Shown one piece after another: positions 1-45,707 of a stretch of DNA of 64,000 nucleotides. The position numbers and the translations under genes are program-made. The stretch's first letter is position 1. Each line of letters opens with the position of its first letter. The notes below the pieces were generated by a model that saw only the letters and a program-made list of their open reading frames with translations, did not search any database and was not told the DNA's origin. Origin of the DNA: Schizochytrium sp. TIO01 (lineage: Eukaryota > Protista > Bigyra: Labyrinthulomycetes); the NCBI GenBank assembly GCA_004764695.1, contig SMSO01000032.1, positions 3,752,483 to 3,816,482 of the forward strand, read 5' to 3'.

Positions 1-1391
1 TCACGAATTAATTTTGATCCGTGCCACATTCCCAACCAATGAAAAACGCCTCCTCCTGTAAATCGGTTTCGATTTTTCAGTGTTTGCCAAAGGCTTACAA
101 TCAGCACAACTTCATGAATTTTACTCGGAGAATGACAACTCCATCCAAACTTTCCTGTGTTGATGTTTTCCTGGCATTTTGGAATGAGAGGTTGCCATCC
201 GGCCCACCCACCAATGCAGCTCACGGTCCTTCCTAGAAACCAGGATATGAGGCAGTATGGTCGACTTCCGATTAAGACAGTGTCGTACAATGATGGATAA
301 ACTTTACATAAGTCACAATCATTGCCGAAGAAAGTTTGATAAAGCTTTCGTGCAACAATTCTTATTTGTTGACGTCCTTGGAGGTCTGTGTACGCAATCA
401 ACCCAGACATAAACGTGTGTATTATGAGAGTATCTAAGTCCTCCTCACTGTCAGGTAGGATTGCCCTGAAACCGGTTGCATTTTGAAACACAGATTGAAA
501 TTTTTCGATTTTTTCTTCAATTTCCTCGCGTTCAGCTCCCATAAGCTTTTTTGTTATATTGGGAAGGCTCTGCAAGAGTGTCTCTGGTGGCTCTTTGCTA
601 TAACCAAAATAAAGAGAGGACATCGTCAAATGCACTTTTCCATCGTTAGAGGTTCTGTATAAAGTAACGTCAGCATTGTCGTGTCGTAGCTGCTGGAAGA
701 TTTTGTCTATTTCAGGGTCATCTGATTGCAAGTTTTCCACTAGAACCTTTTCTAACAGCTCAGCGGCTGTCAAAATTTGGCCTTGAAACTGCTGTCCAAA
801 GCAATCCATCGGCACGGGCATTGACCCAATATCTTGCAAATACGCCGTAACGCATCCAATCAAGGTTTTGCCGGAGCCAGTGCCCAAATTCGCTTGAAGA
901 CCTGGCTGAGTTGCCGCAAGCGGGAAAAGAGCAACCTTTGTTAGCTGCTCATCAGTGACACATCCATCGGAAGGCGTCTTGCCAGTCTGAATCTTCACCT
1001 CTCCACTGCTCAGTGCTGAGAAGACTTCTTTCTGTCCTGATCGGAATAAGTTTGAATTGCATTTTTCACGAACATAATCAGCAATGAGGCAGTGTATGCG
1101 ATCTTTGATTAATTCGCGAGATTCAATGTCTCTATGTATACGTTCGAAGAAATTCCCTTGCGGATCTTGCATTGCCTCCAAGTCCTGCACACTCAAAAGG
1201 ACTGTACCAACGTTCTCAGCGATACGTTCTGAGCTCATAGCATAAATTGGGACGGGATTGAGACTTTGCGACATTGTTCCAATTGTTGAATTGAGCCTAT
1301 TCCTTGGTTTATTTCTTGAAATTTGATGCCAGCGAGTTGTGGGTTTGCTTGCGACTTTGTTAAAGCATGTGAATTCGGTTGCAATAGACTC
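1..1391 (-). CDS. Atypical SF2 (DExH, Res/HsdR-like) helicase/ATPase, paralog A; 3'-partial, runs off the left edge of the window
   Basis: Hand translation: the minus frame has no stop from 1391 to position 3 (first ATG at 1274). It is absent from the ORF track because there is no stop inside the window. It contains a Q-motif-like FRSGQKEV, Walker A GTGSGKT (884-864) and ends ...KLIR+GA at the edge, matching MLIRDEAH of paralog B. Multi-block similarity to 3453-7471. A probable further N-terminal segment lies in another frame (1482-1363). Confidence 0.85.
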
Positions 1392-1566
1392 TCACTTGTT
1401 GAAGAAAAGGCTTTGATTTGAGGGACACTGTGACAGTTGTAAACGTTGACTTGTTCTGGGTAGGTTTATCTGATAAACGCCTCTAACCTCGCATTAAATT
1501 AAAGCATGGGAGAATTGTATCTGACGAGCCGCTTATCACATGTTGAAGTTGTACGCAGTGCCAATG

Positions 1567-1609
<43 letters not shown>
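1567..1609. repeat. Compound (AT)n(AG)n microsatellite between the divergent helicase genes
   Basis: Direct reading. Confidence 0.95.
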
Positions 1610-3452
1610 TGTGAATACCTATGCAGAAAGATAAACTTTTCTCAAATTTAGGATAATTACTAATGGACCTTTAAAACGTATGAATAAAAGCACTTGATTT
1701 CCCGTGTTCCTCCTTCTTTCTCCTTGTTGTCCAAAAGAGAGCCAAATCCTGACCAAACTAATTTATTATTATCATTTTTTTACTTTTCAAGTAAATTTAA
1801 ATTTAAAAAAAGAAAAAGTTTTAATCTTTAAAATCGCCGCTTGTTTCCTCTGGCTAAACTTACTCTTGGTCCTCACTCGGCAAAACATGATTACACGAAT
1901 CGAGTCAAACCAAGTCAAAACTTTTTAAAGGCAGAACAGATAGCTCCGCCACAATATTCACTTAGACATCTGGAACGGCAATACGTGAAAACCAGAGAAG
2001 TTTTTTACTGAGCTGAGGGTCAGAATCACAATCTTTGATGTGCGTTGATGTGTGACGCTCCTGCAATTCAGTTCCGCAGTCGACCGTAAATTCAAGGTTT
2101 GCGCTGGCCACGAAGTTTTCCGAGGTGGATCTTGCTCCTGGCATTCATTCACGTCAATTGCTGGTTAAAGAGATAAATTTAAGAAACCCCTGCAGCTAAT
2201 TTGCGCGGGCCTGTGTTTTTGAAGAAAGATCGAAGTAGATCAAACTTGAAAGCAAAGATCTCCAAGACGTCTCTATTATAAGGTTCGTCTTCGGCGCCAA
2301 TACAATTTAGTGTCTACGCCTTCGTTAGCATTGCTTTGGTTGTATTCTCAGGAAAGTTGGAACTACATGGCGAGAGAGCTAATTGGAGTCCGTTTTTCCC
2401 AGGTGATACTGCCTTCAACATCCACGTGTCTGGCGCTTCTACCAAGTCTTCATAGCCAGAGAAGCCGCGATCAATTTCCACTCTTTGACCTGGATAGAAT
2501 AAGAGATCAAGCCCTCGTGAACGTCAAGAGCTGGAGTGGCGGTCAAGTCCAAGAAGTTAGGAATTGAAAGCAGCCTGAAGCATACGCATTCAGGAGAACT
2601 GATTTGGGTGCAGTCTGCATTGGCGGTCGGCCGAGGAATGGCTTAATTTGAGCTGCTCAGACGTCTCTAAAGTAGGCAAAGCCTGGTCTCTCCCTGTAGA
2701 TGTGGTGTGCCTGTCCACGTTTTCATCGATTCGCTCTCTAGGTCCGCAAATCGCCAATTCTAAACGCCCGAGCTTACAGAGGCAGGAGTCTCCTCGAGGG
2801 TTTCAACAATCTTGGCTTCATCTTGAAGCGGCGCAGCACTTTGTCCGTCTAAGACCCATGCACAGCTAGCTCTACAGCCGTGACAAAGCGTGACGGCTGC
2901 GTCTAAAACAAAATATCGTTCCAAGCTCACGTGTATCGTTTTATCCATATTTATTATTAGGATTTATAAAACTAACAGACAAAATCTCACTTTGCGAGCC
3001 AAATAAAGCCTGCTGGAGCAGAGGCGCCTCTGGCTGGACCCATCTCTCTCCCTTCTGCTGGCACTCGTTTCTCCCATCCTTTAGGACTGCCAAGGCATGT
3101 GACTACGTCTAGCAGGTGCGATCTTTCAGGTACGATTAGAGATCCCTCGGTTCAGTTCTTCCAAGCCCCATCCACGTTTTCGTTTTGCTCTCAATCTTCA
3201 AATACTCTTTTTTTAAAATTAAATTTGTACATAGCATAAAATAAGAAACAACATAAAATCCCACTCTGAGGAAAAAGGCGCCTACGGCCCTTTCTGTGGT
3301 ACAGGGAGCCTCCCCTTTGCTTCTACACCTGCACATATCATATCGATAATGTTGTGAGCAACCCCTTTTCATATTAAACGCATACTACACTTACACAGAA
3401 AGAGGTCAGCAATTCCTTTACTGCTGCTTCGAGTGGGTAAACGACGAAAATT

Positions 3453-6400
3453 TTGCCAGTCAAAAGAGCGAGATTGAATTCATATTGCAAGAGGCGGGAA
3501 GCCTTAAATAAGCAGCATACCAGCTTCTTGAAGATGCCGCATAATGCAGGTGCGACCGCGGGAGTGAGTCTTGCCAAGTTGAAGGTTCATACGTCTCAAG
3601 ATCTCCAAAATGTATCTCATGTTAGTATCACTAACAACGAAGTTTACACAGAGGCTCTTAAGAATTGTAGATCAATAATTCGGCATGAGGAAATACACGA
3701 TATGATGAATAATACAAGCAAACAGTTTAAAGTTAATCATTCATCCGGAGTGGGTCTGGATCCTGCCGTGTTTTGTACAAACGAGACATTCATAAACCTG
3801 AAAGAATTTTTATGGGAACATTTCGATGAGCACGTTTTCCCTTCATTAAGAGAATGTCAACAAGAGTGCCTTCGTGCTTTGAGGTCCGGAGTAATCTTAC
3901 ACGAGGTAGGTGAAAATGGCGGCAACAAGACATATAAGAATCGTGACTACGGTCCACTTATGGTCACGCAACCGGGCGCACAACATAAAGCTGGACCAGG
4001 TCAGGGGAAAACGATATCCGCCTTTCTTGCGGCACTCCTTCCATTAAGCTCGATCCCAGTAGAGGGTTCTGAATATGGCTACAAGGCTGGAACTCTCGGT
4101 ACATTTATGAAAGGGGTTCTCACCAGACAGAGCATCTCGAAGAATCCTGGCGTTGAACATGTTCTGAATTGCATTCGTCACAATAACAGGAAGGTTCTGA
4201 TATACACAACTAAGGATGGCCAAACTAGGTTGATGGAATCTTCCGTCTTATTTGGATACGGCTCTGAACCAGCAGACAATTTCTGCAGTTTACTTCCTGA
4301 TGTATGGAAACTGTTCAAAGTTTATACAAACGGAGAAACCAGAATATTCACGCAGAGAAACCTATTGATAGAAAATTTAAAGCGATATGTACCCTATTTG
4401 CAAGGAAGACCAAAAAGGTATTGCAGTTCCCACGCCAACTAAACCAAAGAGACAAACACAAATTTGTTTTGGAAACTTTGTTGAGTGGATCGATAGCATA
4501 TCGGGAAAATGACTGTCAGTCTGTACACATTGAACATCTCGGATATGACCTGATCAAGGCTATATTCAAGAAAGAATTTCAAATCTGTAAAATGTGGACA
4601 TCGCTTTGTGAGCCTGTCCTTATTGGACGGCGTTTGTATATGCCACTTATGTGGATTCTAGCTCGAACGGTTGTATGGAGCGGTGGAGTGAATACATGGA
4701 GGGTAATGGCACCAATCGAACAATATGATAATTTTGACTGCAGTATTGAAGCAGAAATCCAAAATTGTGTTTTACTTATTGGATGTTGGGGAACAATGCG
4801 GAGCCAAAGCAAAGGTTCCAAAAAAAAGAATAAAACTGAGAATGGGAAGAATCTCCCTAATTGGATTCAGCATGCAAACTTTGGTATGCTCATCCGCGAT
4901 GAAGCTCATGTGGCATCTGACGAAACCACCAAGACCGAAATATTTCTGAAAGAACATGTTGAGATACAAATACCAGCTGCAATTCATTTCAGCAGTACTC
5001 TTGATATTAACAAAACAAAGATGCATTCCGCTCGTAGCACCTCGTCTGCACGCAAACCAAACGGTTTCCCGATCTCTGACTCGGTCAAAAATAGCAATAA
5101 TCAGCCTGCAACTACTTCTTTGCCACATTTTATTATGTACGACCCCAAAAAGCTAGATATATACGCGAATAGACAAGTACAACATAGAGTCTATGAAGCA
5201 GCTGCGGTGTTCCGACAGGTATTAAGTATTTTTTATTTAATAATTGAGGAAAATATGCGTCTTGCAGGCTATAGAATAGGTAAGAAGAAGTATTCGAATC
5301 TTACGAAGCGCGAAAGGAAGTACCATTTCAGCCTCTGTCGGTCTTTTCCACTTGTTGGACTTTGCTCATTCGCAACATCTCAAGATCTCAACAACTTCAA
5401 GGAACAATATATCGTTCACACAAAAAAGTCTTCTTATAACGAGAAGGACTCCTTTTTGGACGCCTGGATACACCATGCATGCAATCGTGACGGCAGAGGG
5501 TTTTTCTCAGGGTACTTTCATTCTAAATCAAGAAAGTATAGAGTTTTCAAAAAGAACCGCCCCTTGTTGATTCAAAAGATAGTCCCAATAATTTCGACTG
5601 CAGATACAACTGAAATTTACGACTTAAAATCAGGATGTTTCAAAAAGATTCCAGCAACTGATGTACATCTCCTGCTAAACGAAGGTAAGGCCAACTTTCT
5701 GATGGTCCTTCATAAACACCTCCAATGCCTCAATGTACCTCATATGCAGTATGCCATTATACTGAGATCTGAAGGTACCTCAAAACAAACATTTCTACAA
5801 GCTCAAGGACGTATATCACGCAACCCAATAGACCAAGCAGCTATAAGAAGTGCTGCTCTACGAGGGTGCTCCATAGTTGCAAAATCATCTTCCGACAAGA
5901 TCAAACCTCCTTCAGAAAGAATTAAAAGGGACATCGAGCGAGTTTGTAGAGGCACTGGAAATGAACAACGTATGCACACAAAGTTCTTTGTACAGCCAGA
6001 CACAAATTCGCATATCATTCTTGCTGCCCAGGCACTTTTTGAGAATGGATTCAGTATGAACCAAATCCAAGACGACCTAGCAAACACGTTTGAGTGTTGC
6101 TCTAAATGTGGAAAGCCCTTGAAACTTTGTCATGTCGATTCGCTGGGCTATTCAACCCCTCTTCTATGCAAAGCTGATGATCCATGCTTAGACATATGTC
6201 TGCCTAGCATAACAGATTGTTATCCCGCAGCCACTGATTTGATAGGATCTGTTTCCCATGTGGACTGCCTTCCAGTGCACAACAGTGCTTTGCAAGGTTG
6301 TTCTTCATCCAACGGGCCCGTAATAAAAGTTGAGAGCCATGCTGATTCTGAACCAGGAGGACCGCGATCTATTCATGCACCTCCCCGTCAGGCTGTTAGG

Positions 6401-7471
6401 GGTAATATCTCGGGAGCTTCAGTGCATCCATTGAAGGCGGAACACAAACACCGAAAAAGTAACTCCCATCACAGCATCTCCCCCAACAAGCGCAAGCACA
6501 TAAGGGAAAGACACGCCAAATTAAGTTTGTCTTGTCAAACAACAAGTGGCATTCCGGCACGCAATTGTAAAATTATTCAAAAGCCAACTGTGCATGCTAA
6601 TACTCGGCTATCTGAGGCGAACCAACAAGTAACAAGCTGTTCCCGTCAAACAAAAAATCGTAATTTAAAAATGAGTCCTCGATTATCAACGCATCTAGGC
6701 AGTGCTCGAACCCTCAATAAAGCTGATTCGCCATGCATATTGGGCCGTTGCTATATATGCAATAAGGACTGTGTTCCAGTTTCTAGGGAATCCCTCGACT
6801 TGGAGGAAGATCGTTTCAAACTTAACTATAAGCTTTTCAAGGATAAGACAGGCAAAATCGTTGCTGAAGAGAAGCTAGAGAGTGGTCGACTAGTCGGTTA
6901 CAAAGTCCATGAAATGCACCATTCCAAAAAAGGTTCCTCCTTGGTTGTACCGGTGGAAACTTCGAAATCGCAATACCCCAAAGACCTACGCTGCTATTTT
7001 TGCGCGGAAAGCGAACCTTTGTCTGAAATTCTTCTGGAAGAGATTGTAAGATGCAATGAGGAAATAGAACTGAAGTGCCCAATGGGCTTTAAGTGTGCCA
7101 ATTGCTTAAAGGAACTTCGTGTTGGTATATATCTCCATGGTGAATTTGTCAAATTGCCCGGTAATGGAGCAGATTTGGAGACAACTGCTTTGGTGCCATC
7201 ATGCTATTCACGTGGCACATGTGCCAGCGGTTCGAAGAAAAGAAGTTACCGCCAGATGTCTGGGTCGAACGATTCCTTTTCCATTTCAAAAGGGGAAATT
7301 TTTAATAATTACATTCGAGAAGGTCGAGATCCGCAGAATAAATATTGTTTGTTGCTATTGAGGCCATTTCATAAAAACGAAATATGTATGGCTTGTGATC
7401 AATCAAACCGTACACGTATCTTTGTTTCAGATGCAGACAGCAGTCGAAAACGATTAAAAAATATACTATAA
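3453..7471 (+). CDS. Atypical SF2 DEAH helicase/ATPase with Cys-rich (CxxC) C-terminal region, paralog B; split into two overlapping ORFs (3453-4442 and 4304-7471) by a -1 frame change
   Basis: ORF1 has Q motif LRECQQEC and Walker A GPGQGKT (3993-4013). ORF2 has Walker B LIRDEAH (DEAH 4898-4909), motif III-like HFSST, and motif V/VI LNVPHMQYAIILRSEGTSKQTFLQAQGRISR (QxxGRxxR at 5798-5821), then CSKC, CYIC, CYFC, CANC and CMAC. Paralog A is continuous across the equivalent junction, so the two ORFs are one gene. True start is uncertain (first ATG 3534). Confidence 0.85.
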
Positions 7472-7499
7472 TGGATCAGTAGTTGTATGCGTGTCAAAC

Positions 7500-8543
7500 T
7501 TAGCTTTTTGAATTTTGATGAACAGGGTAGAATTCGGGTTTAATCTTGACAGTCTTGGTGTGATACACGCGTTGAAATCGAGAAACTTTCTGCTGCACTT
7601 TCCGACCTGGTCGAGAAGGCTTGGTACCTGCGAAAATACGTAATGCTGTCGATTTGCTAGCCTGCTTTGGTTGCGCCTCCGCCTTTGAAATTACTTCCGC
7701 AATTGCTCTTTCTAAATCATCCGCTGAAGGAGTCAAATTTTGTGATGCATGGGGCGGAAGTGCGTACAGCAATGCTCTTGCTTGCTCATAGTGCTGCAAA
7801 GCTTTCTCCATGTGTCGGGTATGCTCCATCTGTGCAGCGAAACTGAAGTGAGCTGCGATTAATAAGGCAGGAACTTGATACGACGCGTCAATATTTTGTA
7901 CCAAGCTCGGTCGTCTTGAAGTCTCATCTGCAAGGGCCCGAGTAGGAACCTCCTCATTCTGAGCAAGGTTTCTTGCAGCTTGTAATGCTTTCAGCGCATG
8001 ATGTGCAGCACGATTGTGTTGGTGCATTTCGGAAAGGATTGCACATAAGTTCAAGTGGGTGCCGATTGGTTTACGTCGCAATTTGAGCTCTGCGTGCAAA
8101 CCTCTTTGGGCTATAGTTAGTGAGCAGTGGAGCTGTCGCTGGTGTCTATGTACACAACTTGAGTTTGCACAAACGATGCTCTGTAGCTCCCAAAATACGG
8201 TTTTTGGAAAAGTAGATGATGCTGCCATGAGCAAGTTTTCCACGCGCATGATGAGCCTTAGTGCGTTGGTGAGATTTTCAGGTGACGGAGTTTCAAGCAT
8301 ACGTACAACATATGCGTTTCCCGCCAGCAGAAGATCTCGTCGCTGTCTCACTTGATCTTCAGGTGAAAGAATAGGCAGAAGCAGGGTGAGTTGAGTGAAC
8401 TTTTGTGCGAAGGCTTGTTCGTATTGATTTGCACTTTCGAGACGCAGTACGTCCGCCTGTAAGTCTTCCAGCGTTGATGCAGAAACCATTGTTGTAGAAG
8501 CACACACAAGATCTCGCGTGTCTTCTTCCGTGGTGGACTCCAT
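7500..8543 (-). CDS. TPR-like helical repeat protein
   Basis: Long ORF (first ATG 8543; the track extends it to a TTG at 8657). TPR-like segments: THLNLCAILSEMHQHNRAAHHALKAL and AAHFSFAAQMEHTRHMEKALQHYEQA. Confidence 0.7.
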   Translation of the reverse strand: MESTTEEDTRDLVCASTTMVSASTLEDLQADVLRLESANQYEQAFAQKFTQLTLLLPILSPEDQVRQRRDLLLAGNAYVVRMLETPSPENLTNALRLIMRVENLLMAASSTFPKTVFWELQSIVCANSSCVHRHQRQLHCSLTIAQRGLHAELKLRRKPIGTHLNLCAILSEMHQHNRAAHHALKALQAARNLAQNEEVPTRALADETSRRPSLVQNIDASYQVPALLIAAHFSFAAQMEHTRHMEKALQHYEQARALLYALPPHASQNLTPSADDLERAIAEVISKAEAQPKQASKSTALRIFAGTKPSRPGRKVQQKVSRFQRVYHTKTVKIKPEFYPVHQNSKS

Positions 8544-10021
8544 TTCTATATCGCTGCCTGCGCCTACTGGATAAAGCAAGTGCCCTTCTGCGAGCGGCAG
8601 CGTTGGTGGTCCTTTTGCCACAGCGGAAAGGTGACAGACCTCCCCGCCTCTAGGCAAGCCTCCGGGCCGTTCTTGGAGCCTTTGAGCGGTTTGCTGAGTA
8701 CATGCTAGCTATAGCGCTTCATTTCCTACGCATATAAAATTGAATGTGCTGTTAGGACTTGCAGGATCAAACCGTGAACGGATCTTTTTTAGATTCGTGA
8801 AAAAAAAAAAAGAGTAAAAAAGAATATCCCTGCCTAATTTCATGTAGCAATTAGCTACACAAATTAACTGAATTCGTCACAAGAAGAAAAAAACCAGAGT
8901 CACATGCACGCAGGCTGTTAAAGACAGTTGAGAAGAGTCCATAGGGTTCTGTGCCTCAGGTCGCTCTCGTTCGTAGGTCATCGACTGCTACCATGTAAAT
9001 AGTTCTTCCAATCTGGTACTTGGTTGTTCAAAACTCAGGTGTCCTTTAGCCTGTTGTGCGCTAAAGTAAGTGAATTGCATGAGTCATTTACTCATGTTTC
9101 CTTATATATAGCGATTATCAATTCTTGGAGATGCATTTGCTAGCTATTTGAATTCATAGGTTTGAGATTTCATTTCCTCTTGTTTGAGTTATTTCCATAG
9201 TTTAGTTCGCAAGGTTTTGATACGAGTTCAGATGTTCCTTTATTAATAAACTCGATTTGTCATTGGTGCGCTAGGAACGCATAGACTCACTTTCATCTTT
9301 AGCTGACGCACTAAATTGTAGCTACAAATTTTATAAATGTTCGAAGCCCGTGGATGGAAAAGTTTTTTTGGCTGTCACACAGAGCCTCTTAGGCCTCAAA
9401 GAAACATTTTGCGAACCTAGCTCAATGGTTTAGTATCCTGAAGAAAACCTTATGAATTGATGTACTTTATGGCTTATGTATTACAAACAAACCTCGCATC
9501 TTGCGACAATGTATAGTCAGATTTCTCAGAATCTTGACTACTGCCCTACTTTGTTATATTCCGGCGCACATTCCATTCTGTGAATGTGAGCTGAGAACTG
9601 GAAATTCGTCCGCTGAGTAGACGCAAGAGGAGTATTGCATCCTCCTGCCTGGATCCAGGGAATATGCTAGTCCAAATGAAAGGAGCTGTAAAAAGACCAA
9701 AAAGGGTGACGGATTGCAGAGACTACGCTATCATATAGTTAGTATAATGACATTGTGCGAAACACAATAAATTGTTTATTTGGCAAATTTAAAGAATTAA
9801 TCAGAGGTACATGTTAGAAAATGTCGAAGAATTATAATTGTACAAAAGTCTGCGGGTCTCATGCAGTAGATGGAACTGAATTTGTGCAAGTTGGTGTTTA
9901 TAGCACACTGATAATTGTCGATCTTAACTGCATGCAAGTGAAATACATATATATATGTCGTAAACAGGTCCACAACAAAGAAGACAAGGCATGAGTTTCT
10001 ACATCTGAACATCTGAAAATT

Positions 10022-10915
10022 CTATTTGAGATTCGGCGATGAGAAATCCTGATTGGCTGCTGCTGCGTTGCTCTCGACTGGTGTCTCTATTATTGTGTTG
10101 AAGTCCGCTTTGGTACAAACATCACAGGCCACAACAGCATGACCATTGCGATCAAATTTATGAAGACAGCAGCCAGGAGAGCATTCCATAGTCGACCAAA
10201 TGAATGTGCAGCCACCGTGAAAAGGTGTAACTTCATGGCGACCACGCAATGTGGAGGTGGGGACTCGTTGGCGAGCGTAAAGCACAATCTGTAGCTCTAC
10301 AAAAATGAGAACTAATAAGATAGTCATAACTAAGATCAGAGGAGGCCTCTTGATGCCAAATCCATTGTTGCCCTCATAGGTGCTGCTTGCTCTGCGCGTG
10401 CGCACGATAGGGGTTCCACAAACCGGCGCCGTCTCAATGAGCCTTTGGCTAAGAGAGGAGTGGAGGTCTAACCGTGACAAAATGCGTACCGAATTGCCTT
10501 CACTGCTGTTGCTAGTAATGCTTGAGGAGGACGCCGGAACTACTCCACTACTAACGGTGTGCGGTTGCTCCCAGAGTTTCGGCTCCTCCGTGAATGCAGA
10601 AGAAGGAGACAGAATTGATGATGCCAAGCCAGAAGTCGCAGCCGCACAAATAGGAGAACTATCCAAGGATTTCATGGACGGGTGCGATGATGCTGATGGC
10701 AACTTTGATGGCATCCAAGATGATGATTTTATGCTACCAGAAGCAACATTATTACTTTTGGTATTGCTGTTGCCACCACCTAGGTTGGGGTCTTGGGCAT
10801 CGAGTCCAGAGACAGTACAAGCTGAGGCGCAGCGAAGGAGCGGAGCTGACGCGGAAGACGCGTCGGTGTGTTGCCAGCTATCGAGGCTAGCTGCAGAAGG
10901 CCTTCCTGCCGGCAT
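10022..10915 (-). CDS. Hypothetical single-pass membrane protein: Ser-rich N-terminus, one TM helix, small Cys-rich C-terminal module
   Basis: 297-aa ATG ORF; hydrophobic LILVMTILLVLIFVELQIVLY; GCTFIWSTMECSPGCC...CDVC. Confidence 0.65.
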   Translation of the reverse strand: MPAGRPSAASLDSWQHTDASSASAPLLRCASACTVSGLDAQDPNLGGGNSNTKSNNVASGSIKSSSWMPSKLPSASSHPSMKSLDSSPICAAATSGLASSILSPSSAFTEEPKLWEQPHTVSSGVVPASSSSITSNSSEGNSVRILSRLDLHSSLSQRLIETAPVCGTPIVRTRRASSTYEGNNGFGIKRPPLILVMTILLVLIFVELQIVLYARQRVPTSTLRGRHEVTPFHGGCTFIWSTMECSPGCCLHKFDRNGHAVVACDVCTKADFNTIIETPVESNAAAANQDFSSPNLK

Positions 10916-11333
10916 CTCGTGCAGACAATTTATTTTTATGTTGTGAGTGAACCAGGGACAGAAACTTTAAGCAGGCGCCCGGGTAACAAAGCGAGGTGGT
11001 GCTTTCTTCAGTAAACTCTAGCGACTAAAAACTAAACAGAACAAGTGAAACTCAAATGGCGAGACACCAAAACTTGAAGACGGCGCCAGTCCAAGCCATC
11101 CACGGGAGCCACGCAAAGCCGCAGGATGGGACGTTCTCCGCGAGTCGCCGTTCCAGGCTCTCGCAATCGACCAACAACCGATCGCCGACCGATCGTTGAT
11201 CGATTGGCGGTCACGCTGCCGGCGATTCGGGTTTTGGATTGGATGGGCAATGCCATTATTGCGATCTCATCGCGTGAAAGCGAAGAAAGTAACAATTTTT
11301 CTCCATCAGTTAGTTAACAATCCATTCCCTTTT

Positions 11334-11395
11334 AAAAAGTCTTTATAAAAGTCTTTATAAAAGTCTTTATAAAAAGTCTTTATAAAAAGTCTTTA
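11334..11395. repeat. Minisatellite, 12-13 bp unit AAAA(A)GTCTTTAT, about 5 copies
   Basis: Direct reading. Confidence 0.9.
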
Positions 11396-12964
11396 CCTAT
11401 CTTTTCCCAATCCCTAGTGCCTCTTAGCTGAGTGCTAAGTACCTACCTACCTAAGCAACCTGAAAGAGTTCTCTCCTCACTTTTCTTTGAATTTGGGATT
11501 GAACCTTTTCAATCGAGTTAGTTCTTATAGTTACTACGCAGTGCTTCCTTTAGTTTAAAGACAGACGCCCGAAAGAAGAAGAAGGCGAAGGATCTTTCTT
11601 TTCTGCTCATATTCTGTGACGCCGTTTTAGTATTATGGTCAAACTTTAATAAATAAATAAATAACTTTAAATAAATACCTTTAAATAAATAACTCTAAAT
11701 AAGTAAGTAAAAATGGTATCCTTATAACAGCACTTTGCGGAATGAACACAATTGTACGCTCATTCGAAGCTCCAAGCGCGCGATCAGCCATCTTCGCGTA
11801 CCTTCTAAAGCGCCCTCTCGAGATCGAGGACGCCTCCATCTGCTGCAAACAAAGGCCTTTTTGATCGCGATCTCGAAAGTGCTCTCGAGAAAATAGCTCA
11901 GATTTTGAGCGAATAGATAGACAGATCGATGGACAGATAGATAGATAGTTAGATAAATAGATATCAATCGATGCACGAATGCATCAATGAATAATGAATA
12001 CCCAAAAGATTTCACTCGTTTTCTTTCTCTCTCTCTTTCCCCTCAGTTCCTGCGGCATATATGGAGAGTCTCAGAGTTTATAGTAGCTAAGCCCTAGTCG
12101 CCGCGGACAGAGGAGGACCTTCCCTCTTAGAGTTTAGTGTGGCCACACTGTTTTAATTTGAACTTACTTACTTACTTTATGAAACTAATAATATGAAATT
12201 CTGTCAAAGCGAGTTTTCTGTAGAAATTGCGATTCCTTGAGTTGAGCTCTCGAAGAAAACACGGCCTCTGCAAAGGAGGTTCCATACACTCTGACGCCCC
12301 TCGGGCTTTGAGGCGTCCTCACATTTGCACAGACGGCTTCGACAGATACTTTCAGATTCAGGCCATCGTGAATTCGGGGTAGGTTAGAGAGTCAAAGGAG
12401 ATTCAGGCCTTTCAATAATCCAAGTTTCGCCTAGCCAGCCCCTACCGTTGCCTAGCCCTTCCCTGGCATAGAGGAAATAAGTTTTCATTAATAAGCTTTC
12501 CCTTAATTTCCCCTTTGAAAGTACTTCGAGTTCTCCTTTCTTCAATGGGACGTGACGTAATCTTAGCTTTGGTAATGTACCATTAGGCCCACCCTACGGG
12601 TCCTCAGACAGCCCAACTAGCCAGGCACTAGCAGTTACTACCGCAGACTAAGAAGCTAAGATCAAAAACTTTTCTCTTTTCTCTTTCTGCTCTTAATTTA
12701 AGAAGAACATCACAAATTCAGACTCCAGATAAGGAAGAAGAAGGAAGGAAGACCTCTCTAAACCTGCACTGTAAACTGTTTTGTATACATTCACTGTAAG
12801 CCTAACATTCGAATTTCCCTTTCGGCTAAACCTTTAGGCAGTCTTAAGGTCCGTTTACGGACTCCTATCTATCGCTTCCCTTTCCGAGGTGGACCATCTA
12901 GCGCCAGCCTCCTAAAGTTTTCCGTAACAACCTACATAAGAGCCGTTGCTTCCCGTGTTTAGTA

Positions 12965-25126: not shown

Positions 25127-27472
25127 ATGGCGATGAGGCGTGGCGCTTTACGCGCTGCAGGTGACTTTGTGAATGATGAACTAGACAATGAGTCAGAAGG
25201 ATGGGGAGACGGTATGAACGATGATGATGATGACGACGGCCGGGCAGCCTATCCTCCCAAACCCTCAGGCACGTCAAGATATGGTTCTCAGAATGCAATA
25301 CCAGGAGGCCCTGCGAAGCAAATCAACCCTGCAACGACTACCACGTCAAGAGTACCTGGGACGACGCCCGGTTTTGCAGGGTATGCAGATAGCAAATCGA
25401 ACTGGTCACCAGCTCAAACTCCTCTCCGGCGAGACCGACGGCCATCGTTAGCTCCAGGAGAAACTGGAAAGTCTGGAATACTTCATGAAATTCGAGGAAA
25501 GAAAGCCATTGTTCGATTTGTGGATGTGCGTCGCAAGCATCTGCAATACTTTGCACTCAAGCGCACGATCGGCGAAAAGGTCCTTCGTAAGAACCTTGCC
25601 ACACGAAAGCCAGAGGCCCTTGAGTACCGTGTAAACTGGAATCGCCCAGTTGCGAACCTCGATCTTCGGTTATTCCGCATAGCACTCCATGAACACGCGC
25701 GCCTGAACCATTCTTTTCGCCTTGAAAGTGCACAAGACGATAGCTACATCATGTTCCGCGCCCAAAGCTTTACTGAGGCAAAAGAATGGGTCGAATTACT
25801 TAAACATGAGCAAGAGGTGTATCTAGATGAGCAACGCCACCGCTCTACAGCTTTGAGTTTGGGCCTCCCGCCAGCAGAGCAAATGAAACCAGCAATGCCA
25901 ATCCTTCCAACAACTTATCCCGGTTACGAACTCGTTGAGTATTTTGAAAGAAAGGATATGAAATTCATGATCTCAGATATCCTCGGCAGTAAAGTGGAGA
26001 AACGCAATGGGTTTGCTATCCTTTCCTTTAATCTGCTGGCCAATTTCTATATAGTCACTACAAAACGACCTGAAATGTATGCACACTGTGACAAAGGTTG
26101 TCTCAATTGGAGATATCGCTCTAGGCGCATTATTCATCACTTAATTACATGCGATTCTGACATCATTTGCCTTCAAGAAGTTGAACGTTGGGTCTTCGAA
26201 GATGAGCTTATGATAGCGCTCGGTAGTCGCGGCTACACTGGCAAATTAGAATGCAACAAGCGTAAAGATGGCTCTGAGGTTCCAGGTACAGCCACATTCT
26301 ATAAGACTAAAATGTTCAAGGAGGTGTGGCAGGAACGCTCCTACCGTTCCTTATTGATTGGCCTTCAAATCTTGGAGGGCCCTGAGAAGGGTTCCGTTCT
26401 TGCCTGCGCCAATTCGCACCTTGAAGGTAATCCGTTGCGTGCCAAGGACCGCGCTAGCCAGATTCGAGGTGTTTTCAAGAAGCTAGAGCGGCGAAAGGAT
26501 GAGCATCGCTTTGTTGTTCTTTGTGGAGACTATAATGATGGTTCACAAAGTGACTTATGTCAGACAGTCCTTGCAGAGCAACATTTCATGAGCTGCTACG
26601 ATAACAGTGAAGCTCGAGATGCCACTTGTCTGCTCGTACCAGATGATGCTAAAGAGGCTGACATTGAGGCTTTACGTGTGGATCACATCTTCTTTGACTC
26701 ACGGCTTCGCGTTCGAGCTATTATGAACGTAATGAACGAGGCTTGGTCTCGCGAGGGAATGATTGAGCTTGGCCTGCCTAGTTTGGCATGGCCTTCAGAC
26801 CATTTGAGCATTGGCGCTATCATAGAATTTAATCAAGATTCCGAGATGTTCCTCGTCAAAGAAGAACAGGAGGAAGAGCAAGAGGTTGATCCGTTTGAAA
26901 TCATGACGTCTGACGAGATCTTTGGCAGCGATGCATTCAACCCTCTTTCTCTCAGCGAGCGTGCAGTTTGGCTAGATCATGAAAGCAGTACCACCTTTGA
27001 AAATAATGGTCGACCTTCTCCTGAAGAAATTGAACGCCGCAAAACAGCCTCAGCTGCCAAAGAGGCTTTCTTAAAAAGCTTACCGGAAGACAAGGAGTCT
27101 TTTCTCCGGAAAATTATTGCTTTGCGGCGTAAAGAGGCCAAAACATCGAAGAAAAATAAGGGCAAAGGTGCAGGCAAACCGCAAGCGCAGCGTCGCAAGA
27201 GTTTTACAGAACGGCTTCGCCAAAGCGGAGCTGCTGCTCGTCAGAGCATTTCACATGGCCTCGCTCGCCTCTCACATCGCTCGCGTTCAAAAAGCCGAGC
27301 AGGGTCTCAGTCTAGCTTGGGTAAGCCATCTGCTACTGCAGCACCCCCGGCGAAGCCTAAGGTAAGACGTGGGTCAACAGTCCTCACATCAGCACACCAA
27401 TTACAGTCTAATAAGAGGCACTCAGATGACGACGATGATGATGACGATGATGGACTTCGTGACATAATTTAG
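25127..27472 (+). CDS. PH-like domain + CCR4/Angel/nocturnin/PDE12-family endonuclease-exonuclease-phosphatase (EEP) protein
   Basis: EEP motifs ILSFNLLA, DIICLQEV, SHL, LCGDYN, VDHIFF, WPSDH. Upstream PH-like segment KSGILHE...HLQYF...SFRL...IMFRAQSFTEAKEWVELLK. First ATG 25127. Confidence 0.85.
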   Translation: MAMRRGALRAAGDFVNDELDNESEGWGDGMNDDDDDDGRAAYPPKPSGTSRYGSQNAIPGGPAKQINPATTTTSRVPGTTPGFAGYADSKSNWSPAQTPLRRDRRPSLAPGETGKSGILHEIRGKKAIVRFVDVRRKHLQYFALKRTIGEKVLRKNLATRKPEALEYRVNWNRPVANLDLRLFRIALHEHARLNHSFRLESAQDDSYIMFRAQSFTEAKEWVELLKHEQEVYLDEQRHRSTALSLGLPPAEQMKPAMPILPTTYPGYELVEYFERKDMKFMISDILGSKVEKRNGFAILSFNLLANFYIVTTKRPEMYAHCDKGCLNWRYRSRRIIHHLITCDSDIICLQEVERWVFEDELMIALGSRGYTGKLECNKRKDGSEVPGTATFYKTKMFKEVWQERSYRSLLIGLQILEGPEKGSVLACANSHLEGNPLRAKDRASQIRGVFKKLERRKDEHRFVVLCGDYNDGSQSDLCQTVLAEQHFMSCYDNSEARDATCLLVPDDAKEADIEALRVDHIFFDSRLRVRAIMNVMNEAWSREGMIELGLPSLAWPSDHLSIGAIIEFNQDSEMFLVKEEQEEEQEVDPFEIMTSDEIFGSDAFNPLSLSERAVWLDHESSTTFENNGRPSPEEIERRKTASAAKEAFLKSLPEDKESFLRKIIALRRKEAKTSKKNKGKGAGKPQAQRRKSFTERLRQSGAAARQSISHGLARLSHRSRSKSRAGSQSSLGKPSATAAPPAKPKVRRGSTVLTSAHQLQSNKRHSDDDDDDDDDGLRDII

Positions 27473-44088: not shown

Positions 44089-45707
44089 ATGGCTGCAAAA
44101 GGGACGTCTAGCGGTGCCAAAACGAGCAAGCCTTCGGCGCCTACGAGTGCCAAGGCAGGGGATGCTGGCGCGGCTACAAGCGAGAAGAGTTCTTCATCAG
44201 GCTCGAAATATCTTGCAATTATTGCAGTAATTGTGGCGGCTGTTGCAGCAGCTCTTGCAGGACCGTACCGCGAAATCCTTGATGAGTTTCTTTCTGCGCA
44301 GGGAATAGCTGAGAGCACCGCTGCTCCACTCACTCCTGGACAAAGTCAAAACTCCTCTCGCCGCAGGGCTGCAGAAGTAGAATATATGCCTGCTAGCATG
44401 GCAGCACAGTATGAAATTACCGATGCTGAGGAATTACCGTATACTACGTATCTTCTCAACGCCCCGAACAAGGGCGCTGAGCAGCCAATGGGTGTTACCT
44501 TTCGTAGCTTCTATCCCTTTGACATGACCATGTGGTGGGACAATGGCACCCCTGAAGGTGTCTACTCAGGTTCAATCAGAGCTTTTGGCATTTCCGCCAC
44601 TAACTCGTACACTACACACGTGTTTCACTTTCGCAAGCGCGACACTGGTGAAAATATTGTATCTGTGGAGATGAAGAAGGGACAAAACATGGTTTTTCTT
44701 GGCCCCGCTGAAGACGATGATGCAACTCGAGAATCCTCGAGGTACAAGGAGGCTGTGGAAGAACTCAAGTTTCGTACTGACTACTATGAGAAGCACAACA
44801 CACCCTGGCTGTCTCACTACCCACCGGTCAAGCCGGCGCTCTCCTTTTGGCCTGCTGATTTCGTTGGACAAGAGCATAAACTGCGCTCTTTTGTGGGCTA
44901 CTTCAACGAAGATGGCACTCAATCCCCTGAGCCTGTGGAGTTAAAGATCAAAGTGGTTTCAGTCCAGCCTCGTGTGGTTGTGATAGAAAACCTACTCAGC
45001 CCTGCAGAAATCGAACATATTCTCAACCTTGGTAAGGGAGTAGTACGTCGCTCGAGTGTTGGCAGTTCTTCCGAAGGATTTCAGAGTGATACCCGCACTA
45101 GTGACAACGGTTGGATCAGTCGCAAACGCAGTAATCTGCTCAACACCGTCTATGATCGATTTGCCGACGTCTTGAACATGACCGATGCACAGGCATCAGA
45201 AGGTCCCAATGGAAACATCGAGCAGCTTCAGTTTGTTCGCTACCGGGTTAGCCAAAAGTATGACCCTCATCATGATTTTGGCTACAGTGGTAAGCCGGAG
45301 CAGCGCTTCTCAACTCTTTTCATTTACCTCCAGCCATCCGCAGCAGGCGGCGCCACATCCTTTCCAAAGGCCTTCAACGGACGCGGTATCAAAGTGAAGC
45401 CTCCCGCAGGTACTGCGGTTCTTTTCTATAGTATGCTTGAGGATGGTAATGGTGACGATCTCAGTCTCCACTCTGGCATGCCCGTCAGTAAGTTTTCTTT
45501 GAGATGCGCAAAACCACTTCCCTTATGTTTCTTCTTTTTGTGGGAGCTCCCTCTTCCCTTGAAGATGCTTGTCTGGTTTCTTATTATGGTAGAACCACTG
45601 AAAACTAACAGCCTGTGAATGCTTGAACCTTGCTTATTACTCTCTTATTAGCCGACGGTGAGAAGGTTGCAGCTAATTTGTGGTCCTGGTCTCCACGTTA
45701 CAGATAA
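44089..45707 (+). CDS. Membrane-anchored prolyl 4-hydroxylase alpha-like 2OG-Fe(II) dioxygenase; exons 44089-45487 and 45652-45707
   Basis: TM anchor YLAIIAVIVAAVAAALAG; P4H motifs QPRVVVIENLLSPAEIEHI, RTS, EQLQFVRY, YDPHHDF, GGATSFP. The phase-1 intron 45488-45651 (GTAAGT...ACTAAC...TAG) restores LHSGMPVTDGEKVAANLW. Confidence 0.9.

Follow-up and report, generated by a model that had tools for sequence, protein, structure and literature searches.

The first 7,471 nucleotides (nt) of a 64,000-nt stretch of the Schizochytrium sp. TIO01 genome (the window; assembly GCA_004764695.1, contig SMSO01000032.1, positions 3,752,483 to 3,816,482) carry two divergent, head-to-head paralogs, here called genes A and B, which have superfamily 2 (SF2) helicase motifs and are ~27% identical. 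Gene A was recognised as a minus-strand open reading frame (ORF; 3-1391, first Met at 1274) that is still open at the window edge, and gene B as two overlapping plus-strand frames (3441-4442 and 4301-7471, first Met at 3534). BLASTP aligned A with the first frame of B (E = 9e-20, 31% identity over 166 amino acids (aa)) and with the second (E = 9e-15, 26% over 203 aa); against the intact B protein the alignment extended over 369 aa (27%, E = 6e-34). All six A/B blocks quoted in a preliminary description of the locus were present and collinear, with A aligned to both B frames. That description also reported no likeness between A and B at the DNA level, which blastn (word 7) likewise did not find, and its proposal of an old duplication detectable only in the proteins is supported. 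No third copy was detected by tblastn within the window. Taken from their sequences, A and B are old paralogs of a small SF2 family known so far only in thraustochytrid-type protists. An inverted local duplication is the simplest origin for their head-to-head layout.

Gene B had been described as split. The two frames are as described, but the gene is neither spliced nor in two parts: a single A is missing after position 4320. Alleles of B were surveyed in eight of the 24 runs listed for 20 holders of the sequence (X1, X2, X3, X12, X15, X16, X17 and X20), and in 6/8 one more A after 4320 gave an intact frame. The broken form in the window was matched by X1, possibly the source of the window, and by X2, which belongs to another study. 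A search with the second frame of B returned a single protein, P0004 (1312 aa), which spans the break in one frame. An intron at the break or at 5218 was rejected because no joint was seen in any of the eight runs, and an assembly error at 4320 because the base is also missing in X2, from the second study. The break is therefore a natural null allele, a 1-nt deletion. Runs X15, X16, X17 and X20 share their differences and are probably one strain; there are about three intact B haplotypes versus one broken.

Single-nucleotide polymorphisms in B (X15 group and X3) comprised 15 silent and 11 replacement changes, where 21-27% silent changes were expected by chance (P = 6e-5 to 1e-3), and the ratio of replacement to silent polymorphism (pN/pS) was ~0.2-0.27. 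The counts were made from the rows listed (17 and 49 further rows were unscored) and X12-only rows were left out. B is under purifying selection. A second copy of the B 3' end, scored apart, held 18 differences, 5 silent and 13 replacement, as expected without selection. In the coding part of A all of the listed differences (4/4) change a residue, which is too few to interpret.

The second copy was observed in X2 and X3 (window 6828-9000) and comprises the last ~640 nt of B plus sequence beyond. Its left flank differs at 6828, and depth is approximately doubled as far as position 9000. It is likely a segmental duplication or a heterozygous rearrangement. In the B haplotype of the X15 group, a 1-nt insertion and a 1-nt deletion at 5446-5450 compensate each other, so that about two codons are changed and the frame is kept.

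A family profile, built from the B core and A, was run over 1.84 billion representative proteins with a cut-off of E ≤ 0.001. Only five matches were obtained: P0004; FCC1311_003342, FCC1311_003362 and FCC1311_022112 from Hondaea fermentalgiana; and an unnamed 429-aa protein. A second profile search gave no further members. The proteins 003342 (1375 aa) and 003362 (928 aa) are encoded on the same 346,940-nt contig, one gene number apart, and 022112, just 389 aa long and carrying GEGRK, was counted as a broken copy. The 429-aa protein lies on a 9.4-kb metagenomic contig, L001, which holds one family copy flanked by a coenzyme A (CoA)-binding gene and an ACSF4-type propeller gene; two in-frame stops, one frameshift and altered motifs I and VI mark this copy as a pseudogene. 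Despite several stops, most of them TAG, the core and the Cys-rich tail of this decayed member can still be recognised at 2630-6865 of L001. The small number of matches, three of them from Hondaea, bears out a lineage-specific expanded family, one of the options offered in the preliminary description, and no standard eukaryotic ortholog was recognised there or in our Pfam, PDB sequence and profile searches. The Hondaea identifiers were absent from the papers searched and from the supplement files of PMC12221091, and nothing on the family was found in the literature, subscription journals and bioRxiv supplements being outside coverage. The family is an undescribed SF2 family with a family-specific insertion, and its members are annotated as "hypothetical".

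Identity between the window and Hondaea proteins was 27-33%, compared to 50% within the Hondaea pair. In a tree of the shared N-terminal region 003342 and 003362 formed a branch (support 91/92), and because they group together the pair is read as its own duplication and not as orthologs of A and B. Clustering of copies thus recurs, though probably by separate duplications. Two of the one-to-one pairings of Hondaea copies with A or B were rejected by the approximately unbiased (AU) test (p-AU = 0.019 and 0.020) and two were not (p-AU = 0.056 and 0.067). Of the nine tree tests eight finished, and with three long branches A and B as sisters were neither shown nor rejected. The preliminary description had put forward a conserved two-helicase system. 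This is unsupported because the Hondaea copies are each other's sisters, the 9.4-kb L001 contig has a single copy, and B is null in some strains. Breakage has occurred repeatedly, in the B null allele, the L001 pseudogene and the 022112 fragment, and our verdict is that the family is lineage-restricted and evolves by birth and death.

Intact B and both full Hondaea proteins have the SF2 motifs in order (Table 1): Q (LRxxQ), I (GxGKT), II (RDEAH/D), III (S[GS]T) and VI (QxxGRxxR), followed by CxxC. A shows only motifs Q and I within the window, and both full Hondaea copies have DEAD, not DEAH. The distance from Walker A to motif II is ~285-299 aa in the family, compared to 82-111 aa in 11/12 measurable references. 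This motif I-II stretch is conserved in all six family members. Its insertion gave no match in any library searched, and an ESM Atlas search with it reached 0.85 at best, a lead only. After motif VI, four members have one CxxC and further conserved cysteines, with spacing unlike the RadD-like phage set. Similarity of the Cys-rich tail of B to that of 003342 was reached by 6/1000 shuffles; with the L001 copy the counts were 60/1000 and 22/1000. The family proteins are 930-1375 aa with a variable tail, and no nuclease domain was detected in them by Pfam, NCBIfam or PADLOC. B and the Hondaea proteins also have basic clusters, which could serve as nuclear signals.

Table 1. Features of the gene A and gene B locus, with positions in the window.
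Feature	Position	Strand	Evidence or remarks
Gene A, N-terminal part of 424 codons, covering the first RecA-like domain and its insertion and continuing past the left window edge	3..1274	minus	ORF call, paralogy
A, Walker A / motif I, GTGSGKT	864..884	minus	motif profiles
A, Q-motif-like FRSGQ	1032..1046	minus	motif scan, alignment
Divergent spacer, 2259 nt between ATGs	1275..3533	none	(AT)n(AG)n microsatellite 1556-1618; AT-rich 21-nt inverted repeat 1793-1813 / 3206-3226
Gene B, 1312 codons where the frame is intact, with a frameshift in the window strain; no splice joint seen	3534..7471	plus	intact protein P0004 and 8 runs
B, Q-motif-like LRECQ	3846..3860	plus	motif scan
B, Walker A / motif I, GPGQGKT	3993..4013	plus	motif profiles
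B, family-specific motif I-II stretch with ~190-aa insertion (limits approximate)	4070..4760	plus	spacing; conservation in six members
1-nt deletion allele frameshifting B, polymorphic among strains	4320..4321	plus	extra base in X3, X12, X15, X16, X17, X20; absent in X1, X2
B, motif II, LIRDEAH	4889..4909	plus	motif profiles
B, motif III, FSST	4988..4999	plus	alignment
B, motif VI, QAQGRISR; in motif V, immediately before it, a C replaces the G of three relatives	5798..5821	plus	motif scan
B, CxxC of predicted zinc-binding element after the second RecA-like domain	6098..6109	plus	present in the four members of sufficient length
B, cysteine-rich region at the C-terminus, preceded by a linker of low conservation	6749..7396	plus	weakly shared with Hondaea 003342

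Judged by these motifs, SF2 membership of the family is secure. Its placement within a subfamily is tentative because only short motifs align with known families. ResIII/RadD/XPB-type helicases appear to be the leading look-alikes, in line with the type I/III restriction R subunits and XPB/Irc3-like helicases named in the preliminary description. Motif profiles hit the matching motifs of reference SF2 proteins in 15/16 cases for Walker A, 9/16 for DE(A/C/S)(H/D) and 9/16 for motif V-VI. ESM Atlas feature matches of 003362 reached 0.92, and all eight rows shown carried ResIII; the structure rows, from one source and under its naming bar, gave template-modelling (TM) scores of 0.36-0.41 by query and up to 0.63 by target to DEAD/ResIII clusters. 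A single phage match was obtained for 003362 among 50,697 records, the ResIII/Helicase_C helicase of jumbo phage Phosso (XYS97225; E = 3e-3, motifs V-VI, 26% over 150 aa), which has RadD as its best relative in PDB. This helicase outscored all 960 shuffles against a core profile of three members.

Other searches returned little. Pfam gave no match on B, none of the members reached PF04851 even at E = 10, and 003362 gave sub-threshold SecA_DEAD (PF07517, E = 0.005) and Helicase_C (E = 0.18) matches. The PDB sequence search returned only a faint archaeal XPB (6p4f, Sulfolobus-type XPBII) at motif V-VI (E = 1.5-1.9); a motif II-III mini-profile run against PDB gave noise. Plasmid and prokaryote genome searches were empty; phage tblastn found no match for intact B and only E = 6 for 003342. 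The AlphaFold2 models were poor (predicted local distance difference test (pLDDT) scores of 35 and 39) because of too little alignment depth. On these low-confidence models Foldseek gave no PDB or BFVD match at E ≤ 0.001, and the best VIA Z was 4.8 to SF2 RecA2 domains, below the trust level of Z ≥ 5; these blanks are uninformative on the fold.

The family was compared with known systems. It has the same motif order (Q, I, II, III, V, VI) as RadD/YejH and the phage ResIII-Helicase_C proteins (PF04851 + PF00271; e.g. Sinorhizobium phage Phosso XYS97225, E. coli RadD), with an alignable motif V-VI, a CxxC after motif VI and no nuclease. It differs from them in its ~290-aa Walker A-motif II distance and variable tail, in being eukaryotic and multi-copy, and in scoring below PF04851. 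Type I/III restriction R subunits (HsdR, Res) likewise have an SF2 motor of the ResIII-like group (Atlas), and HsdR ranked second for Walker A, but the family gave no nuclease domain, no R-subunit family match and no PADLOC match. No methyltransferase or specificity gene was found beside A/B among the listed window ORFs (9 scanned), a survey covering the right of A only. The faint 6p4f match to XPB/Rad25 was not significant; the family has no XPB N-terminal domain in Pfam scans, its range is narrow with repeated loss, and no XPB-like proteins were among the family-profile hits at E ≤ 0.001. XPB is an essential TFIIH subunit.

The SecA likeness covers the Q-motif to GEGKTL region of 003362 (residues 43-159) at 16.5 bits versus a cut-off of 24.6, but no cross-linking or wing/scaffold domains were found in the family, and motif III follows motif II by ~30 aa. 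UvrB has an equal Walker A-motif II distance (295 aa). A UvrB-like insertion was rejected, since the family insertion was not beyond shuffle level against E. coli UvrB or DinG. Compared to XPD/DinG, the insertion lacks the four conserved cysteines for an Fe-S cluster, and there is no Arch-domain gap between motifs II and III.

The preliminary description had A and B diverging from a shared spacer of ~2 kb. The layout stands, and the length was refined to that in Table 1. The spacer had no match in Rfam, reading it through in six frames gave none of interest in Pfam, and a promoter/terminator scan, with models of bacterial type, returned shuffle level only. Its middle (1793-3226, ~47% GC) is bracketed by the AT-rich inverted repeat, and 24 nt at 1882 are missing in one strain. 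Stop-riddled reverse-transcriptase-like motifs were seen by eye near 2270-2430 (plus strand); a decayed retroelement was rejected, as Pfam gave no support. In four runs taken to be RNA by guess only (none of the holders is on record as RNA), contigs span A together with much or all of B, and most of the spacer has no contig. The DNA runs cover the spacer, and the contigs of two studies end at 1504 and 1508. Transcription of both A and B is weakly suggested by this pattern, in which contig depth does not rank A against B.

Motif II of A sits at the window edge, which falls after …IR and the GA of the D/E codon. Contigs extend 1.5-1.8 kb past position 1 on the A side. Those of X1, X2, X15 and X16 all stop 1795 nt beyond position 1, and this common end suggests a repeat or branch point that would bound A at ~1020 codons or less. 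Full-length A was not found among longer proteins, by the family profile, or in metagenome and viral contigs.

The flank genes in the window are ordinary eukaryotic genes (MORN repeat, ubiquitin-like phosphatase, exo/endonuclease-phosphatase, CBM1, 2OG-Fe(II) oxygenase, alpha/beta hydrolase, V-ATPase E, kinase), and 8/9 scanned ORFs matched Pfam. No viral hallmark genes were found right of B in the window or in L001. Four IMG/VR scans, which reach close relatives only, found no viral relatives, and none of the five library hits is named as viral. The preliminary suggestion of viral or mobile-element cargo found no support in these scans and flanks. GC content at third codon positions (GC3) was low at the helicase locus (0.36-0.40) and 0.38-0.44 in several host neighbours.

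A convergent 347-aa gene (7503-8543, minus strand) with a faint TPR match (E = 0.22) ends ~30 nt from the B stop, and contigs of two of the runs guessed to be RNA span B and this gene. Farther right lies a 297-aa orphan gene (10025-10915, minus strand) with a hydrophobic segment, a Cys-rich C-terminus and no Pfam match, which is present in transcriptome collections. Transcriptome records clustering with the genes at 44089-45615 and 25127-27469 carry taxid 87120, which NCBI taxonomy assigns to a fungus and which is probably a digit swap for 87102 (Aurantiochytrium limacinum). Short AT-rich tandem repeats with 12-14 nt units occur at 11329-11387, 11654-11709 and 11913-11960.

We propose, with a probability of about 0.4, that A and B are translocases that act on DNA in the nucleus and carry no nuclease. 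They would be dispensable accessory enzymes that likely work independently of each other, most likely to survey foreign (viral) DNA. SF2 enzymes move stepwise along nucleic acid, driven by ATP held between two RecA-like domains. By analogy with this biochemistry, ATP would bind between the two RecA-like domains (motifs Q, I, II and VI), and hydrolysis would be coupled through motif III to movement on nucleic acid. The likeness to ResIII/RadD, the basic clusters and the CxxC that follows motif VI suggest that the substrate may be duplex or branched DNA in the nucleus, and that the insertion and the C-terminal Cys-rich region may set the choice of substrate or partner. The narrow range, fast divergence, and repeated duplication and breakage fit a dispensable family in genetic conflict. 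Persistent mirusviruses and skiaviruses are reported in thraustochytrids (PMC12606086; 10.64898/2026.07.28.741200). Because the conflict pattern coincides with persistent DNA viruses in the hosts, foreign-DNA surveillance is the leading guess, and a defence role would be plausible for a family evolving by birth and death in such hosts.

Several results weigh against this proposal. Defence helicases often carry an effector domain, and none was found; PHROG, NCBIfam and PADLOC gave no meaningful match. The polymorphism of B indicates purifying, not diversifying, selection. Motif V of B lacks the glycine of the family, and A may not be a full enzyme, its second half lying outside the window. The helicase affinity is also uneven: profile-profile comparison with nine RadD-like phage helicases reached just 66% probability, intact B matched the phage helicase at E = 0.11 and the RadD-like phage profile at shuffle level (3/100 shuffles reached its score), and the best Walker A match was SecA, which is not a ResIII protein. 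The Hondaea sister branch is not starred, and 2/4 one-to-one pairings survive (p-AU = 0.067 and 0.056). The substrate and role of the family are inferred.

Members of the same enzyme type might instead act in accessory DNA repair or recombination, as RadD or yeast Irc3 do, with redundant duplicates tolerating null alleles. This is possible, if somewhat unlikely. It would fit the purifying selection on B, the faint archaeal XPB match to motif V-VI, and the RadD-like phage helicase, which is the best sequence match and also has a CxxC after motif VI. RadD is reported to aid RecA strand exchange and not to unwind by itself (PMC8887467). The range of the family (5 library hits), the ~30% identity between genera and the repeated decay point the other way. 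Repair helicases are usually widely conserved. A non-DNA substrate, with the proteins as SecA-like or RNA-acting SF2 ATPases remodelling proteins or RNA-protein complexes, is considerably less probable. The sub-threshold SecA_DEAD match to residues 43-159 of 003362, the place of SecA at the top of the Walker A ranking and the DEAD of both full Hondaea copies speak for it, but the motif I-VI layout and the Atlas matches follow ResIII/Helicase_C, and SecA is not among the C-terminal profile hits.

Capture of the helicase gene from a mobile element or a large DNA virus, followed by partial domestication and by decay now under way in several lineages, would account for the lack of visible introns in B, the low GC3 and the weak jumbo-phage match, and host-virus gene exchange is reported in thraustochytrids (10.64898/2026.07.28.741200). 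We regard it as improbable: several host neighbours have equally low GC3, the IMG/VR scans and library hits gave no viral relative within their reach, and the flanks are host genes, both here (MORN, ubiquitin-like phosphatase, V-ATPase E) and in L001 (CoA-binding, ACSF4). Least probable is an obligate heterodimeric translocase with A and B co-regulated from a shared promoter. The head-to-head layout, the contigs covering both genes in four runs taken by guess to be RNA and the two clustered copies in Hondaea would agree with it, but the pair in Hondaea seems to come from a duplication of its own, only one copy is present on L001, B null alleles stand beside an open A frame, and 2.26 kb separate the ATGs. 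A conserved two-subunit system is likewise not supported by the copies compared.

Sequence searches of Pfam, NCBIfam, PHROG, PADLOC and PDB do not reveal the family, which is thus a branch of SF2 that had gone unrecognised and that has a new inserted domain. Among cultured hosts of mirusviruses, thraustochytrids are the main ones. An unlikely version of the surveillance proposal is that the family is a new eukaryotic antiviral DNA-sensing motor of restriction-type or phage helicase origin, with its own ~190-aa recognition insertion, duplicated and lost in co-evolution with mirusviruses and skiaviruses. In that case viral load would differ between natural strains with a null B and those with an intact one. 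Should the role be no more than redundant repair, the family would be a modest addition to helicase diversity. The natural null allele of B, in a culturable and genetically tractable protist, makes defence versus repair testable by strain comparison.

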